Source of the DNA: an uncultured Alphaproteobacteria bacterium
Lineage (GTDB): Bacteria > Pseudomonadota > Alphaproteobacteria > 16-39-46 > JAJRRM01
Assembly (NCBI GenBank): GCA_964594205.1
Contig: CAZQLR010000004.1
Location: 1-26,644, forward strand
Direction: 5' to 3'
DNA: 26,644 nucleotides
This document shows, piece after piece, positions 4,853-22,965 of the stretch. The notes beneath the pieces are model-generated. The model was not told the origin of the DNA. It searched no databases and saw only the letters and a list, made by a program, of their open reading frames with translations. Positions within the stretch are counted from its first letter, which is position 1, and every line of letters begins with the position of its first letter. Both the position numbers and the translations under genes were made by a program.

Positions 4853-7800
4853 CTAAATCTCCCTGGACCTTTCAACTACAAGCTCTTTCGTAACTACTGG
4901 AGCATGTTTCCTATATATCTCTTGCTGTGTTTGTTTCACTTCACGAAGTTCTCTCTTAAACGTGTCATCAACAAGTATGTTGGATTCATCCGATTGTATT
5001 CTCATCATTTCTCTTGATACGAGTGCCCGGCGATAATGTTTCTGCGGCTTTGTCAGATTCCTGTTTTCTGAGTAACCCTCACTTTCTACTACTTTCTGAG
5101 CCATATTACATAAATGTGCTTCTCTCTCATCACTTAGGTAAGCGCCCTGACGTTCAGAGGTCACAAGGTACATATAGGCAGCTAACTTACTAGTTGTAGC
5201 GTTCAATCCATACATGTCTTGCAAACGCTCTCGCATAGGCTCGTACTGCTTATTATTACTCTCCATACTTTTGAGGGCTTGGGTATGGTAGTCAGTTTGA
5301 GGCGGGTTATCATTATAGAGATCTGCTTCGAAATGCCGGCCTTCTACTTCTGCTTGTCTTTTGGAAGCTAAGAGGACCTCTGACACATAATCTTTTGCCT
5401 TGCACTCCCCAGCTTTGACATCCTTAATGAACTGCTTTTCTTTGGCTTGCTTGATTTCTTCGTGTCTGGTGTGCTCGAAGGCAGCGCGTTTGAGAGCGAT
5501 CTTCATATCACCATAGGTTGGATCTTGGCCCGTTGCATCGTGACGCTCTAAGAGACACTCTGTAGCCCTATCTGCAATGGCCTTGAGGGTTTTGGGATCT
5601 ATATCTGTGTCCGGGTTTCGATCCACAATGAAGCCTTCCAGCGTCCTAGACAGTGTTTTAAAGGGCTGCTCCTTAATGGAGAGGCTTTCTGTCTTGTATT
5701 TCTCACTGTCTTTAAGCTTCTGTATGTCTATAGGCTGATAGATATGCTGCTCTTTTAAGTCTTCTGGCAGTTGGTTGAGAATCACCTGCCCTGCTCTCGC
5801 CTGCCCTTTCTCTTGCAGCAGGTCATTGAAGTCCTTCTTCTCTTTGCCGTGTTTGGTAGGCCATATGATGTGAACATCATGGCCTTTTTCTCTTAAGAGA
5901 TTAGCATCTTCCTTAATCAGGTCATGGGTCTTCGCCCCTTTGCCATCATAGTCCGCACACAGCACAATTGTTGTCTCTTTTGGTACATCGATGTTGCGGA
6001 AGTTGTATCTACCAAGGCCCGCTTGGATGGCAACCGCCCCATTGCCCTGTGGTAAGGACTTCTCTACAGAAAGTCCTGTCTCAACACCCTCCGTTAAGAA
6101 CAGAACCTTCGGTTCTTTAGTATGAGTCGACCCTCTTAAGGTGACAAAACTCCCTTTACACGTGCCTCTGGACTTTTTAGCAACCTCCACCTCTTTGGCC
6201 TTGGCACCCGTCTTCTGATCTAAATAGATCTCCTGGAACCCCGTGATCTTTCCTTCTTGATCTCGCGCAAAACTCACCATAGCTGGGCAGGTTTTCCCCG
6301 TCTTGTAGTCTGTCCGTGCAGGCACATACCGAATGTCTTGTGGTATATCCCCTTCTAAACCGCGATGATTAACAAGATATGTCTCAACAAGAGTCCCCTT
6401 AGCTGGCTTTGAAGCCTTGTAAAGCTTGGTGGCCATCTCCGTATCTTTGGCCTTCTTTGCGGCAGTGGCAGCGGCCTCAGCCGCCTCTCTTTCTTGCCGT
6501 TCTTTCTCAATCTCTTGCGCGCGATACCCCACTTCAGCTTTTACACCGCGATTTTCTGCAATCTCCGTAATTACATCACCATAAGATCTATTGGTCGACT
6601 TAGAGGCGAGCATAAAGATGTCACCCCCCTCACCTGACTCAAAGTCCTTCCATAACCCGAACTTATTGCCTGATATGGTTAAAACGACACTCCCATGTCG
6701 ACCATATCGTACTTCTGTCTTTGTACGTCTCTTGTACTTCGTGTCAAAGTACTTATCAGCCGTATCCTCTAGATCGGAAGCCGTCATCGTCTTTAATACC
6801 TGATCTCTGTCATAGTAAGGCCGCCTTTCCTGCTTAACAAGCTCTTGTAGCCCCTTCTCTTTCTGATTCGTTCTCACCTTATCCATCTTCTGTTCTCCTT
6901 TCTTAGATGGTTGGCGACCCTCCTTTATAACAAATGGACTTTCTCCCAATCGTCCATAGATTTCTCGTATCTCTGACCTTGTCGCAATACGTGGCGCAAA
7001 GGTAGTAGATTTCTCTGGAATTATCTCTGTCACCTCGTCTCCCCGAATCCCTTGATGCCAGAGTATCTTCCCTATATCACGCACAGCATCAAACTCATCC
7101 TTCAAACGCTGCTTAGCCCTGTCTTTAAAGCTGATAGGCTCCCTGTCTTTGCAGATTTGATTTTCTATATCTGTACGCTTGTCTATCGTGCTGTATTTAT
7201 GACTAGACGTAGAAAGGTATTTTAAGTAAGACGCCTCATCCACAAACTCTGTTGATGGTGCATAGACCTTCACATCATCCCTATGACGAGTCATAGCGAC
7301 ATACACCTCGTCTTTGCTCATGGTTGACGAGGCTAATACAAAGCTTCGGTCAACCGTCTTACTTTGGGCCCCAAACACCGTGGAGACCCATCCATAGTCT
7401 AGTGCCTTGTACAGATTGGTTGAAAACGACACTGTCTTTTTGTCTTTCCCCTGCCCTATAAGCACTTCCATCTTGTCCTTCTCAAGGGCTGTGATCGTCC
7501 CAACATCGCCTTTATTAATCTCTCGTCCCTTGTCCTGCTGGCAGAATCTTACCTGGTCCCCTATTTGGACAGCAATCTTCTTTGTATCATGGCGGAGACG
7601 CCCTTGGTCATCTTGGTAGGGGAGATTCACCATTAGTTCAGTATCTGTACCATTCAAGATGCCCTGCGACTTTAAGGCAGCGCGCATCTTTTCCGTGAGC
7701 TCTCGGACATCCTTATTAGTCTTGGCCATAACCAAGAAACGCTGACCTAGATCCTTGCTTATATTTTCTTTGTAAAACTGCACCCAGTCTTTTACTAAAA

Positions 7801-11544: not shown

Positions 11545-11958
11545 GTGGCTTTATTAACAATAGGTGGGATTGCAGCAGCGTGCTCAGTCAAGATTGACAC
11601 AGTTAGGTATTATGAAAAGCGAGGATTATTAGAGCCTATATCACGTACTAGTGTTGGATACCGTCTCTATAATGATAAGAGTGTATCTACATTAAAGTTT
11701 ATAAAACATGCTCAATATGTAGGCTTCTCACTCGAAGAAATAAAGAGCCTTATCATTATCAGTTTTTCAAGAAAAAATATATGTAACGAAGTTAAACAGA
11801 AAGTTCAAGAAAAGATAACCATCCTAGAAAGGAAAGAACGAGAGTTGATGAAAATGAAAAAGGCCTTAGAAGGAATTAAACGTGATTGTAGCAAAGTAAA
11901 AAATGAAGGGCAGCATTGTCCATTTCTGGAGCAGTACAGGTTGCAGGAGCGAGTTTAA
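11545..11958 (+). CDS. merR: MerR-family metal-responsive regulator
   Basis: HTH TIG.IA..CSV..DTVRYYEKRGLL, GYRLY; Cys80, Cys115, Cys125; GTG start with GAGGGAG SD; TAATG coupling to merT. Confidence 0.88.
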   Translation: MALLTIGGIAAACSVKIDTVRYYEKRGLLEPISRTSVGYRLYNDKSVSTLKFIKHAQYVGFSLEEIKSLIIISFSRKNICNEVKQKVQEKITILERKERELMKMKKALEGIKRDCSKVKNEGQHCPFLEQYRLQERV

Positions 11959-12335
11959 TGCAAAAAAACGGAAAAGAACCTTTAAACGCTAGGTGGGCGC
12001 TCGGCGCCGGCATAATAGCTGCTATTGCCTCAGCAGCTTGTTGTATTCTCCCTCTAATTTTATTTCTATTTGGTATCAGTGGCGCTTGGATTGGAAATTT
12101 GACGGCCATGGAGCCCTATCGTCCTTACTTTCTTACAGTTGCTGCAATAACAGTTCTGTTTGGGTATTGGAAAATATATCTCAAGAAAAAAGTCAACTCT
12201 TGTGAACGCGATAGTTATTGTTCTATGCCTAAATCTGATCTTATTAACAAGATTATGTTGTGGATTTCCTCAGTAATCATTATCCTAGTACTGTTATATC
12301 CTTATATAGCCCCCGTCGTTTTGAACTACCTATAA
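11958..12335 (+). CDS. merT: Mercuric ion transporter MerT (125 aa)
   Basis: ASAACCILPL, GISGAWIGNLT, EPYRP and loop Cys pair C-x5-C. ATG at 11958 overlaps the merR stop and has a CAGGAG SD; the ORF-track start at 11916 is too long. Confidence 0.92.
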   Translation: MQKNGKEPLNARWALGAGIIAAIASAACCILPLILFLFGISGAWIGNLTAMEPYRPYFLTVAAITVLFGYWKIYLKKKVNSCERDSYCSMPKSDLINKIMLWISSVIIILVLLYPYIAPVVLNYL

Positions 12336-12357
12336 GATAAGGAACATACACATAAAG

Positions 12358-12675
12358 TTGCATACATTTATACTTGTAATACTTTCAACCTGCTGCCTAG
12401 GGGTGAATGTTAACGCTCATGCACAACCCCCCTCTATCACAACAAAAACCAATAAAAAAATAGTCACACTGGAAATACCGGGTATGCATTGCCCAACTTG
12501 CCCATTTACTGTTCGGAAAAGCTTAAAAGAGGTGGATGGTGTTTTAGACATAAAAGTCTCGAGTCAAGATAGAACAGCTAGCGTAACTTATGATCCAACA
12601 AAAACTAGTGTAAAAAAGTTAATAGAAACCACAACTAAAGTAGGGTATCCCTCTACTGTAAGACATGAGAACTAA
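12358..12675 (+). CDS. merP: Periplasmic mercury-binding protein MerP
   Basis: Signal peptide, GMHCPTCPFTVRKSL HMA motif and TTKVGYPS, directly after merT. Start codon uncertain (TTG 12358 or ATA 12352). Confidence 0.88.
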   Translation: MHTFILVILSTCCLGVNVNAHAQPPSITTKTNKKIVTLEIPGMHCPTCPFTVRKSLKEVDGVLDIKVSSQDRTASVTYDPTKTSVKKLIETTTKVGYPSTVRHEN

Positions 12676-12848: not shown

Positions 12849-14477
12849 TTACAATTTAGAAAAAGGATCTTCATCAGAAGATTCATCTCTAAATCTACTC
12901 CCACGACTTCTTGGTCTTTCTTCTTGCTTAGCACAACAATCATGTTGTGCTGCCGCAGCTATAGGCAGATGTTTCATTTCCTCTTGTTCATCCCCTTCTG
13001 TATAGGTTGCGCTGTCAGAACAACAAGATAAGTTTTTGACATCTGTAAAGAATGTTTGTGCACAGAGCTTAATTCCCTCAACCATAGTTAGATAAGGATA
13101 AAGAGGTGCTGCAAGTTCAGAAATTGTCATCCTACCTCGAAGAGCAAAAACGGCGGTCTCAATAACATCCCCTGCATTTGATGCAACAATTTGAGCACCT
13201 AGTAAACGCCGCGTGCCTTTCTCGGCAACAAGCTTGATGAAGCCGTCCGTTTCAAAGTTAGCCAAGGCCCTTGGAACATTATCTAAAGTGAGAAGCCTAA
13301 CTTCAGCGTCTAAATTCATAGAATCAGCCATAGCCTTTGTTAACCCTACTGTTGCCACCTGTGGATCGGTAAAAACAACCTCAGGAACAATAGATAGGTC
13401 TAGATTTATCTGTTTTCCCGTCATATTCATAGCAGCACGTGTGCCAGCTGCAGCAGCAACATAAACATATTGAGGTTGATCTGTACAATCCCCAACAGCA
13501 AAGACATTTTCCACGCGCGTTCTCATGAATTTATCAACAGGAATACTTCCATTTGATGTTGTTTCCAAACCCACAGCTCCTAAATTCAGAGCGGTAGTAT
13601 TTGCATGACGACCTAAAGCAACTAACAACCGATCACCCGTGATCGTTTCATGGTCCGTAATGATGTTAAATATACCATCTCCATAAGAAACGTTCGTTGG
13701 TACAGTATGTGTCTTCACATTTATACTTGCCTGACGGAAAATTTTCTCCAATTGTGTTCCAATATCAGGATCCATTTTAGATAATAGAGTACTGCGAGCG
13801 AGAAGCGTAACATTTGACCCCAATCGAGAAAAGGCTTGGGCTATCTCTAAGGCTATAACAGACCCCCCAAGAACAATAAGATGTTTCGGAATTTCATCAC
13901 TGTACAAGGCTTCTTTAGATGTCCAATAAGGCGTTGAGGAAAGACCTTCTATATTAGGTATGTAAGGAGAGCTTCCTGTTGCTATTAATACGTTATCTGA
14001 TTTAAATTCCTCATGAGACCCTTCGCCTTTATCAACTAAAACTGTATTTTTATCTAAAAATTGAGCTGTTCCTTTTATAAGTCTAATAAGGGGGTGTTGA
14101 GATAGGACATGTTCATATTTCGCTCCTCTTAACTCCATAACACGGCCCGCACGTTGTTCTAATAAAGCTCTTGGATCAACCCTTGGTTCAAGACCCTCTA
14201 TCCCACGAAAAGGACTGTGGGCCTGAGAGTGAGCTATTTTCCCTGATTGAATAAGAATCTTAGAGGGAACACACCCATAATTAACGCATGTCCCTCCAAT
14301 GACGCCATCCCTTTCAATCATTGTTACTTCCTCTCCATGAGATGCCAAGTAAGTTGCCGCCGCAAAAGCTCCAGACCCACTTCCTATAATCGTGTGTTTT
14401 CCAGCCATACTCATTTGTACTCCTACAGTTGCACTGAAAACTATAGCAGAAAATATTACTACTTTTGTCTTTTTCAT
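12849..14477 (-). CDS. merA: Mercuric reductase MerA without NmerA, with signal-like N-terminus and 56-aa C-terminal extension
   Basis: IIGSGSGAFAAA, GGTCVNYGCVPSK, PQYVYVAAAAG, PRALANFETDGFIKLV, PYLTMVEGIKLCAQTF, NLSCC (C485-C486). Alternative start at ATG 14414. Confidence 0.95.
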   Translation of the reverse strand: MKKTKVVIFSAIVFSATVGVQMSMAGKHTIIGSGSGAFAAATYLASHGEEVTMIERDGVIGGTCVNYGCVPSKILIQSGKIAHSQAHSPFRGIEGLEPRVDPRALLEQRAGRVMELRGAKYEHVLSQHPLIRLIKGTAQFLDKNTVLVDKGEGSHEEFKSDNVLIATGSSPYIPNIEGLSSTPYWTSKEALYSDEIPKHLIVLGGSVIALEIAQAFSRLGSNVTLLARSTLLSKMDPDIGTQLEKIFRQASINVKTHTVPTNVSYGDGIFNIITDHETITGDRLLVALGRHANTTALNLGAVGLETTSNGSIPVDKFMRTRVENVFAVGDCTDQPQYVYVAAAAGTRAAMNMTGKQINLDLSIVPEVVFTDPQVATVGLTKAMADSMNLDAEVRLLTLDNVPRALANFETDGFIKLVAEKGTRRLLGAQIVASNAGDVIETAVFALRGRMTISELAAPLYPYLTMVEGIKLCAQTFFTDVKNLSCCSDSATYTEGDEQEEMKHLPIAAAAQHDCCAKQEERPRSRGSRFRDESSDEDPFSKL

Positions 14478-14522
14478 CGAAAATCTCTCAAGTTAATTTA
14501 TCAAAAAATTAGTCTCTTCTGA

Positions 14523-14554
14523 AGCGTACAACCTAGACTTAGGTCTATGGTCAA
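14523..14554 (-). promoter_or_regulatory. Second MerR-family promoter/operator (20-bp spacer) driving merA
   Basis: Minus strand TTGACC-ATAGACCTAAGTCTAGGTTG-TACGCT; core TAGAC-N4-GTCTA at the same offset as in the 11491 promoter. Confidence 0.85.
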
Positions 14555-22059: not shown

Positions 22060-22965
22060 ATGATTACGGGGGTTATTATGCCTATAGCAAAGCAAAAGTT
22101 ATATAGTACGTTTTTTATATTAGCCTATCTTTTTGTTGCGCCTTTTTGTTTAGCTGGCCTCCACGATGATCAAGACATACAGCCGTACGAAGCAGCTCCC
22201 TCCCGTGTTCCAGTGCACCCTGTTGCTAGCGCCTCTTACACAAGTAATGATCAATATAACGAAACCGGATGTTGCGGAAAGTGTTCCAGAAAGTCCCAAG
22301 ATTGCTGTTACCAATGTCTTGTACCTTGTTGGGGGCCCATTGTTGCTGGGTTTGAGCCTGGCCGGAGAGAAGCTTTTCGACTTCTTGATATTCAGGATAC
22401 AGACATGGTATTGCTCGACGGCGAAGGAGATGGGCTTGACTTTGCCCAGTTCCCTTCCAGTTTCAACTTAAACAACCTTCATGCCCTAGATTTTTCTTCT
22501 AAAATGGTTAAAAAAGCCAAAGAAAGAGGTCGAATCTTGGGTATCCCTGACCAGAATATAGTTCAAGGTGATGCCCAAGAAATTCCCTATACAACAGAAA
22601 GATTTGACAAAATATTTTTCCCCCTTTCGTTAGCATCTATCCCAAACCCCTCTCTAGCCTTACAAGAAGCAGAAAGAGTTCTAGCGCCTCAAGGTAAAAT
22701 AATCATTATGGAAAAGCTAGTAGATGAGGGACAAAAAGTAACGTGCGGCAGACGATTTTTAAACTTCTTCACCAAGCGCATCTTTGCTGATATAATACGG
22801 GACCTACCAACTATGATGTATGGGCAACCGTTGAAACTGACCCATTATACCTCATTAAATGGCCTGCTTAAGGGGTGTTGGAGTTGTATAGGGAAACATT
22901 ACAAACTTGCTGTACTTGTCAGGGATGCAGATTACCCCTCTGTTCCTGCCGTCCCAGCAAACTAA
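22060..22965 (+). CDS. Class I SAM-dependent methyltransferase (PmtA-like core) with signal-like N-terminus and Cys cluster
   Basis: VLLDGEGDGLD (divergent motif I), ALDFSSKMV, QGDAQEIPY...FDKI, SIPNP..ALQEAERVLAPQGKIIIMEK. Likely start ATG 22078. Confidence 0.8.
   Translation: MITGVIMPIAKQKLYSTFFILAYLFVAPFCLAGLHDDQDIQPYEAAPSRVPVHPVASASYTSNDQYNETGCCGKCSRKSQDCCYQCLVPCWGPIVAGFEPGRREAFRLLDIQDTDMVLLDGEGDGLDFAQFPSSFNLNNLHALDFSSKMVKKAKERGRILGIPDQNIVQGDAQEIPYTTERFDKIFFPLSLASIPNPSLALQEAERVLAPQGKIIIMEKLVDEGQKVTCGRRFLNFFTKRIFADIIRDLPTMMYGQPLKLTHYTSLNGLLKGCWSCIGKHYKLAVLVRDADYPSVPAVPAN

Follow-up and report, generated by a model that had tools for sequence, protein, structure and literature searches.

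Known mercuric reductases and the merA gene of the window

Mercuric reductase MerA is a textbook metal-resistance enzyme. Because it needs NADPH it is confined to the cytoplasm, and the rest of the mer operon serves to bring Hg(II) in, with MerT and MerP as the proteins of uptake towards the cytoplasm. In the enzymes of Tn501 and Tn21 the catalytic core is accompanied by a metallochaperone domain, NmerA, and the protein ends with CCAG. Here we consider the merA gene of the window, by which we mean the whole 26,644-nt contig CAZQLR010000004.1 from an uncultured alphaproteobacterium (assembly GCA_964594205.1, denoted below as G000). Its product (P0001) has no NmerA, and a Sec-type leader stands in its place. 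Sequence comparison indicates that this leader is a genuine, conserved coding feature marking a small clade of NmerA-less MerAs. The interpretation that we prefer, with a probability of about 0.5, is that the bacterium is a symbiont dwelling in host cytosol and exports MerA to its periplasm, where the enzyme uses NADPH and FAD that come from the host across the outer membrane.

Core MerAs of archaea and early-branching bacteria, such as that of Metallosphaera sedula (4YWO; PMC4500099), also have no NmerA and consist of the catalytic core alone. They are cytoplasmic and, unlike P0001, carry no hydrophobic leader. No description of a signal-bearing MerA was found in the searchable literature, whose coverage is incomplete, so an earlier description is possible. 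A metaproteomics paper cited by a review of Holosporales does not mention mercury.

The window merA gene (12849-14477, minus strand) encodes 542 amino acids, comprising the leader (residues 1-25), the core (about 26-487) and a C-terminal tail of 55 residues. The protein scores above two curated cut-offs, with 673.6 bits for NF010311 (cut-off 600) and 505.5 bits for TIGR02053 (cut-off 454.45). Residues 26-487 correspond to positions 98-559 of the 560-position MerA profile, and thus the leader stands where NmerA and the linker would be. The core structure 1ZK7, representing the Tn501/Tn21 enzymes, aligns to residues 29-487 (E 5e-152). The domains Pyr_redox_2 and Pyr_redox_dim were detected, as was the NADPH-domain region (Pyr_redox, residues 199-267), which the clade alignment shows to be conserved. 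The redox-active cysteines Cys64 and Cys69 of the flavin disulfide reductase active site (CVNYGC, 14271-14288, minus strand) are invariant in the clade alignment and align with 1ZK7. The Hg-handling vicinal pair Cys485-Cys486 (13020-13025, minus strand) aligns with the end of the profile (559/560) and with the C-terminus of 1ZK7, and marks the end of the canonical MerA. P0001 thus keeps the CxxxxC active site, the C-terminal cysteine pair and the NADPH-domain region of the Tn501/Tn21 enzymes. By curated family criteria the window open reading frame (ORF) is a true, intact MerA, and NADPH-dependent reduction of Hg(II) is predicted.

There are two further differences from the Tn501/Tn21 system. 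Where the canonical enzyme ends with CCAG, the cysteine pair of P0001 is followed by a tail (residues 487-542; 12852-13019, minus strand) that has a second cysteine pair, HDCC (514-515), and the terminal tripeptide SKL. Also, the window merA does not belong to the same operon as merR-merT-merP (11545-12675, plus strand; domains MerR_1, MerT and HMA) but is convergent with it.

The N-terminal leader and its conservation

The leader (codons 1-25, 14403-14477, minus strand) has an n-region MKKTK with net charge +3, a hydrophobic core of 15 residues and a c-region ending in SMA, with a predicted signal peptidase I site between A25 and G26. The original prediction had described a signal with n-, h- and c-regions and a predicted cleavage site at the first FAD-binding strand of a MerA; its coordinates, 14403-14477, are exact, and the identity of the enzyme is confirmed by both cut-offs. 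The best eight-residue hydropathy of the core, 3.17, is the highest of the set.

The closest homologues of P0001 are 55-62% identical to it. In the maximum-likelihood tree P0001 and its relatives form a clade of enzymes with C-terminal tails (support 100/100), apart from the canonical NmerA/CCAG enzymes. All 15 leader-bearing homologues belong to one subclade of 20 (support 97/91), in which P0001 occupies a long branch (0.91 substitutions per site) beside the leaderless P0015. The homologous leaders are 25-30 residues long, with n-region charges from +1 to +4 (two to four lysines), moderately hydrophobic cores of 11-15 residues (hydropathy 1.9-2.8) and polar c-regions, typically N-I-N-P-L-S-A. 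Small residues occupy positions -3 and -1 both in the window (S-M-A|G) and in the homologues (L-S-A|M, L-L-A|S, S-T-A|M and the like, proline being frequent at -4). In the homologues the leader is followed by an acidic stretch E-D-E-D (net -3 to -4) directly before the Rossmann strand. Conservation of the upstream codons as coding sequence, proposed with the original prediction as a check, is therefore seen in 15 of the 20 subclade members. In six homologue loci the leader ATG has a strong Shine-Dalgarno (SD) box and follows a MerR promoter directly.

At the locus L004 the MerA agrees with an NCBI protein of 'Ca. Paracaedimonas acanthamoebae' in every residue where the two overlap, and a module of about 170 bp (operator, promoter, SD box, leader and the first 13 codons of mature MerA) is duplicated before merB. 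The two copies (4930-5180 and 6010-6260) have about 90% nucleotide identity, and the second is in frame with an intact organomercurial lyase. In addition, P0011 (761 aa) is a natural fusion of leader, MerA and MerB.

One has to consider that the leader has no biological meaning, being either an error of annotation or a hydrophobic stretch that is in frame by chance, since ORFs are often called too long and the gene calls of P0006, P0010, P0018, P0022 and P0053 indeed begin too far upstream of the leader. However, random 24-codon leaders of the genome's composition were both open and signal-like in only 0.05% of 300,000 trials. Together with the conservation in the clade, the placement of SD boxes and promoters (see below) and the duplication before merB, this effectively refutes a chance extension, and we consider this explanation next to negligible.

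Some public annotations err in the opposite direction. Those of P0008 and P0017 (L024:3947-5521 and L014:4001-5416; JAIEPE010000046.1 and JAFECQ010000003.1) begin at an internal methionine and omit the leader. P0008 is P0009 minus the leader, and the NCBI-annotated P0017 has a full leader in frame upstream.

The leader is rare. No hydrophobic leader was found in 149 other MerA cluster representatives, whose short N-terminal extensions carry cysteine pairs; these came from a search of representatives at 50% identity, in which the leader clade is collapsed into a single one, P0015. Among 185,579 GTDB species genomes only three have this leader type. A scan of genome contigs with P0001 gave no relative, and an exact look-up of P0001 gave no match. 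Among sequencing runs the sole match was an aquatic metagenome that contained 15% of the words. In G000-G002 no gene other than merA has the same leader. A protein-atlas search with residues 1-60 of P0001 produced generic Rossmann fragments only, all below the lead threshold.

The leaderless MerAs with tails (P0012, P0014, P0072, P0114) are 54-57% identical to P0001, also have no NmerA, and share with it the C-terminal tail with a second pair of the HDCC type. They differ in having no leader and a strong SD box at the start. They reside on Tn3-type or integrase-linked elements with a CMD-MerR-MerT neighbourhood, and in those with known context merT and merA belong to a single operon in the order CMD-MerR-MerT-MerA. 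The leaderless P0015 (789 aa; L006:6001-8370) has a C-terminal extension of about 300 residues without a Pfam match.

Type of the signal

Other types of signal were considered and rejected. A twin-arginine translocation (Tat) signal is not compatible with the leaders, none of which contains RR; several read K-T-K-S-F-L-K, keeping F-L-K without the arginines. A lipoprotein signal was rejected as well, as the window leader has no cysteine, and S-A-M-C in two homologues is not a lipobox, its cysteine not being conserved.

In the homologues the lysines before the core and the acidic residues after it predict an N-in/C-out topology. Cores of 11-15 residues, helix-breaking proline and asparagine, and small residues at -1 and -3 fit a cleaved substrate of signal peptidase I better than a membrane anchor. 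Both signal peptidase I and TatC are encoded in G000.

A different role of the leader is nevertheless conceivable. It could be translated and tether MerA to the inner membrane, on its cytoplasmic side and near MerT, replacing NmerA in the receipt of Hg(II), with catalysis using cytoplasmic NADPH. This would sidestep the problem of supplying NADPH and FAD outside the cytoplasm and account for the missing NmerA; MerT is adjacent in most loci, the leader-bearing MerA is the sole MerA, and the uncharged run of 21 residues in the window copy is enough to span a bilayer. However, the homologues, with two to four lysines before the core and three or four aspartates or glutamates after it, predict the enzyme on the outer side, and cleaved signals, not anchors, typically have cores as brief as the 11-12 residues seen here, with N-x-N-P and small residues at -1 and -3 behind them. 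Tethering also leaves unexplained both the restriction of the leader to intracellular bacteria with a nucleotide translocase (see below) and the presence of the same leader on MerB. We regard it as unlikely, although it is the strongest of the competing explanations.

Promoter and translation starts

A MerR-type promoter/operator is situated at 14523-14554 (minus strand), with the -35 box TTGACC (14549-14554), a 20-nt spacer, the dyad TAGAC-N4-GTCTA (14534-14547) and the -10 box TACGCT (14523-14528). The Tn501/Tn21 systems likewise have a promoter under the control of MerR, with a long spacer. As the promoter is upstream of the leader start ATG1 (14475-14477, minus strand), ATG1 is inside the predicted transcript. 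A weak SD-like motif GAGAG (14485-14489, minus strand) precedes ATG1 by 7 nt. Another motif, AGGAG (14420-14424, minus strand), lies within the leader coding region, 5 nt upstream of Met22 (14412-14414) and 11 nt upstream of Met24 (14406-14408); thus Met22-Ser23-Met24 (14406-14414, minus strand) are candidate internal starts. These positions agree with the original prediction, which had placed ATG1 in the transcript behind a weak GAGAG and had noted the AGGAG at the same distances from Met22 and Met24.

In G000 AGGAG is enriched about 10-fold, and GAGAG about 8-fold, at first ATGs compared with internal ones. Given this similar enrichment, ATG1 and Met22 are about equally marked. AGGAG is found within positions -15 to -4 of only 0.41% of internal in-frame ATGs. 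The use of SD boxes in this genome is weak, with some SD-like 4-mer at 29% of first ATGs and none at 71%. No folding of the 5' region of the mRNA beyond that of shuffled sequences was observed (z = 0.31).

The homologues are clearer. ATG1 is the counterpart of a start that in six homologue loci has an SD box 7-10 nt upstream; the box is AAGGAG or AGGAG in five of them and GGAG in the other. In all six a conserved MerR operator-promoter (TTGACC, dyad, -10 box) lies directly upstream, and thus the leader ATG is the first AUG of an mRNA with a short untranslated leader. No SD box precedes the codon at the junction of leader and core in these six loci, the preceding 25 nt being pyrimidine-rich. 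The junction residue is methionine in many homologues, and isoleucine, valine (GTA) or glycine in three of the six loci (L004, L013, L015).

The leaderless members of the clade, including the sister protein P0015, have GAGGAG or CAGGAG upstream of a start that lies two residues ahead of the Rossmann strand. Since they start at the same point and with an SD box, the junction methionine and the AGGAG-Met22 of the window are best read, on this comparative evidence, as a remnant of the ancestral start onto which the leader was grafted.

The simpler alternative mentioned with the original prediction was that only Met22 or Met24 is used. For the family as a whole it is refuted by the conservation of the leader in the clade, the placement of SD boxes and promoters, and the in-frame leader of P0017. 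For the window copy, one may still suppose that the leader is untranslated or a decaying relic, and that the product stays in the cytoplasm as a normal core MerA, acting together with MerT and MerP. The better SD box at Met22 than at ATG1, the starts of P0015 and other leaderless relatives at the equivalent point, the basic G-K-H after the predicted cleavage site, the linked merT and merP, and the lack of another MerA in the genome would all be consistent with that. Against this, on a branch of 0.91 substitutions per site the leader retains an open frame, a lysine-rich n-region, a core of 3.17 and a valid c-region, a combination found in 0.05% of random leaders; the promoter makes ATG1 the first AUG; GAGAG, too, shows enrichment at starts, 71% of which have no SD box at all in this genome. 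Exclusive use of Met22 or Met24 thus seems to us improbable, somewhat more so than tethering.

Use of Met22 or Met24 in addition to ATG1, yielding a cytosolic isoform, is a different matter, and for the window copy we hold it tentatively, as something that may well not occur. The second start of the original prediction therefore stands in part. AGGAG-N5-Met22 is present in the window, and the equivalent start of leaderless relatives has an SD box, whereas the six homologue loci have no such box and three of them no methionine. A cytosolic isoform from Met22 would make sense of the linked merT and merP.

Intracellular lifestyle of the carriers

The source genome (975 kb, 81% complete, 41% GC) is alphaproteobacterial; its GyrB groups with Alphaproteobacteria, the nearest relatives being at 72-74% identity. 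It encodes an ATP/ADP translocase of the TLC family (604 bits). Transporters of the TLC/NTT type mark obligately intracellular energy parasites such as Rickettsiales, Holosporales and Chlamydiae. All four searchable genomes with leader-bearing MerA (G000-G003, 1-2.1 Mb) have a TLC translocase scoring above 600 bits. None was found in five genomes with other MerAs, save one weak partial match of 27 bits, nor in any of 14 control genomes. One carrier of a leader-bearing MerA, 'Ca. Paracaedimonas acanthamoebae', is a resident of Acanthamoeba cytoplasm (PMC11909080).

An exported MerA was predicted to need NADPH outside the bacterium, and the distribution of leader-bearing MerAs, as seen in these genomes, fits that. 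The symbiont with access to host NADPH that the original prediction envisaged is consistent with the small alphaproteobacterial genome and with the translocase in four of four genomes, while its detoxification of Hg for the host is so far only inferred.

Proposed export to the periplasm and its difficulties

Under the preferred reading, Hg(II)-bound MerR would open the promoter at 14523-14554, translation would begin at ATG1, and the leader would guide the precursor, still unfolded, across the membrane by way of SecYEG. Cleavage after S-M-A would be by signal peptidase I, and the MerA core would fold with FAD in the periplasm. The carriers would live free in the host cytoplasm and import host nucleotides across the inner membrane; if so, their periplasm should be open to host NADPH, FAD and thiols, and Hg(II) could be reduced to Hg(0) before reaching the bacterial cytoplasm. 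The cysteine-rich C-terminal tail, together with MerP where it is present, might take over the delivery of Hg from the missing NmerA. Export, cleavage, the periplasmic supply of cofactors and the benefit to the host are inferred.

Two known systems provide partial parallels. The window MerP (12358-12675, plus strand; HMA domain) has a classical Sec leader and so shows that kind of signal on a mer protein; being a homologue of NmerA, it could pass Hg(II) to an exported MerA. It differs from MerA in that it is a small metal-binding protein without cofactor, whose export is the normal case. The flavocytochrome fumarate reductase of Shewanella, an enzyme with non-covalent FAD, is reportedly exported by Sec, loaded with exported FAD and active in the periplasm. 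However, its electrons come from haem and quinol chains and not from NADPH.

A number of points weigh against export. MerA needs both NADPH and FAD, and we know of neither in a periplasm; similarly, to our knowledge no NADPH-dependent disulfide reductase has been described as periplasmic. Flavoproteins are usually exported by Tat, and the leaders have no twin arginine although TatC is present. The scoring of signal peptides that we used is a crude heuristic, positive for 16% of G000 ORFs. No relative exceeds 62% identity, which is too distant to trace selection on the window leader. In the window copy ATG1 has only GAGAG, weaker than the SD boxes of the clade, AGGAG precedes Met22, unlike in the homologue loci, and the early mature region is basic (G-K-H, net +1), unlike the acidic homologues. 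These last features suggest that export is less efficient or that a cytosolic form is made in addition. Finally, the same distribution of leader-bearing MerAs could arise from common descent and from exchange of genes between symbionts that share a host.

The most serious point of this kind is the presence of MerT. The merT gene adjoins the leader-bearing merA in the window and in L013, L014, L015 and L024, and does so in the genomes G000, G001 and G003; in the relatives it usually belongs to a CMD-MerR-MerT operon (CMD being an AhpD-like CxxC protein) divergent from merA. In each of the four genomes G000-G003 the leader-bearing protein is the sole MerA above the cut-off. If MerT imports Hg(II) and the sole MerA is exported, the imported mercury would be left unreduced, which should be harmful. 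Several ways out are possible. Part of MerA may stay in the cytoplasm, owing to inefficient export of a fast-folding flavoprotein or to the internal start. Alternatively, MerT may import Hg(II) chiefly for sensing by MerR in the cytoplasm, where the CxxC protein would buffer it. Or the leader does not export MerA but holds it at the membrane. In addition, as leaderless relatives have CMD-MerR-MerT-MerA on Tn3-type elements, MerT may be simply inherited.

C-terminal tails

The tails after the catalytic cysteine pair vary across the clade from 4 to 90 residues. Many contain a second (H)DCC pair (the window protein, P0002, P0005, P0012, P0014, P0015, P0018, P0053, P0072 and P0114). P0001, P0010, P0016, P0021/22 and P0072 end with SKL, P0005 with SKM, P0003 and P0008/9 with SNL, and P0004 with PKL; these endings recur on non-homologous tails of differing length. 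The SKL of P0001 fits the consensus [SAC]-[KRH]-[LM] of the type 1 peroxisomal targeting signal (PTS1), and SKL or SKM is found in five other clusters of the clade and not in the remaining ones.

One possibility is that MerA is exported and then delivered past the outer membrane into the host, where SKL would route the FAD-loaded dimer to peroxisomes or leave it cytosolic, so that the symbiont would detoxify Hg for its host. The recurrence of such endings, compared with only three PTS1-like C-terminal tripeptides among 702 ORFs of G000, is consistent with this, as are the intracellular lifestyle and the secretin-family genes in all four leader-MerA genomes. However, these may be pilus secretins, about half of the clade ends otherwise (HME, NRK, LHA, NKE and others), the leader-bearing MerB and a linked methyltransferase have no PTS1 ending, and no route from a Sec leader to the host is known in this group. 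The type VI secretion system is named as the main candidate for delivery to the host (PMC11909080). Altogether, delivery into the host appears quite improbable, clearly more so than either tethering or sole use of the internal start.

Only two other ORFs of at least 150 aa in G000 end with SKL: G000:C6:1659-6443 (plus strand, 1594 aa) and G000:C52:4001-5608 (plus strand, 535 aa).

Genomic context and linked genes

The window carries a coupling protein, a 1726-aa relaxase of the MobA/TraA type, toxin-antitoxin pairs, copper genes and the mer genes. By this gene content it is an island resembling a conjugative element.

Homologous S-adenosylmethionine-dependent methyltransferases are encoded near the mer genes in the window (22060-22965, plus strand) and at L004:3259-4107 (minus strand). 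Both have signal-like hydrophobic N-termini, and the window protein has an extra cysteine-rich insert compared with the L004 copy.

The CMD/AhpD-like protein (C-E-P-C) is encoded by the first gene of the CMD-MerR-MerT operon beside merA of the tail clade (L002:5056-5855, L014:2626-3768, L015:2728-3879, L024:2696-3851, L122:3765-4867); this gene is absent from the window. We take it as a possible new mer accessory protein, which might buffer Hg(II) in the cytoplasm or act as a thiol reductase.

At L012:315-5560, on a single metagenomic contig, a canonical merT-merP-merA operon lies beside a leader-type merA with its own merR. The canonical MerA there has 479 residues and an N-terminal cysteine pair, so cytosolic and leader-bearing reductases may coexist.

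Clusters of bufferin-type ribosomally synthesized and post-translationally modified peptides (BufA1, MbnB/TglH-like, HvfC, DoxX) adjoin mer genes at L006:2488-5300 and L014:1-1461. Such clusters are periplasmic metal-binding peptide systems.

The gyrB gene of G000 (G000:C26:8183-10237; L010, L011) is unusual, as its match to the model is split (positions 1-118 and 258-638) within one open frame of 718 aa, and homologues span only 76% of the ORF. This suggests that the ATPase/transducer segment is divergent or replaced.

Implications

That MerA has a conserved secretion leader next to the promoter, and that MerB has acquired it too, runs counter to the rule that MerA is cytoplasmic, and leader-bearing MerA is found only in bacteria surrounded by eukaryotic cytosol. 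The broadest picture that can be drawn from these data is that in protist-dwelling Alphaproteobacteria MerA, and in some genomes also MerB and the linked methyltransferase, has moved out of the cytoplasm and, in the periplasm or further out, uses NADPH, FAD and thiols of the host, clearing Hg from the host cytosol, possibly with PTS1-mediated delivery to peroxisomes and, in the window, with an additional cytosolic isoform. As a whole this is doubtful, and clearly less probable than export to the periplasm in itself.

For annotation the lesson is practical: the NCBI records of two clade members hide the leader by starting at an internal methionine. If export is true, MerA would exemplify an NADPH-dependent disulfide reductase that acts beyond the cell membrane and takes its cofactors from the host, and would be a concrete case of the symbiont periplasm as an extension of the host cytosol. 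Endosymbionts of amoebae and other protists may then protect their hosts from mercury.

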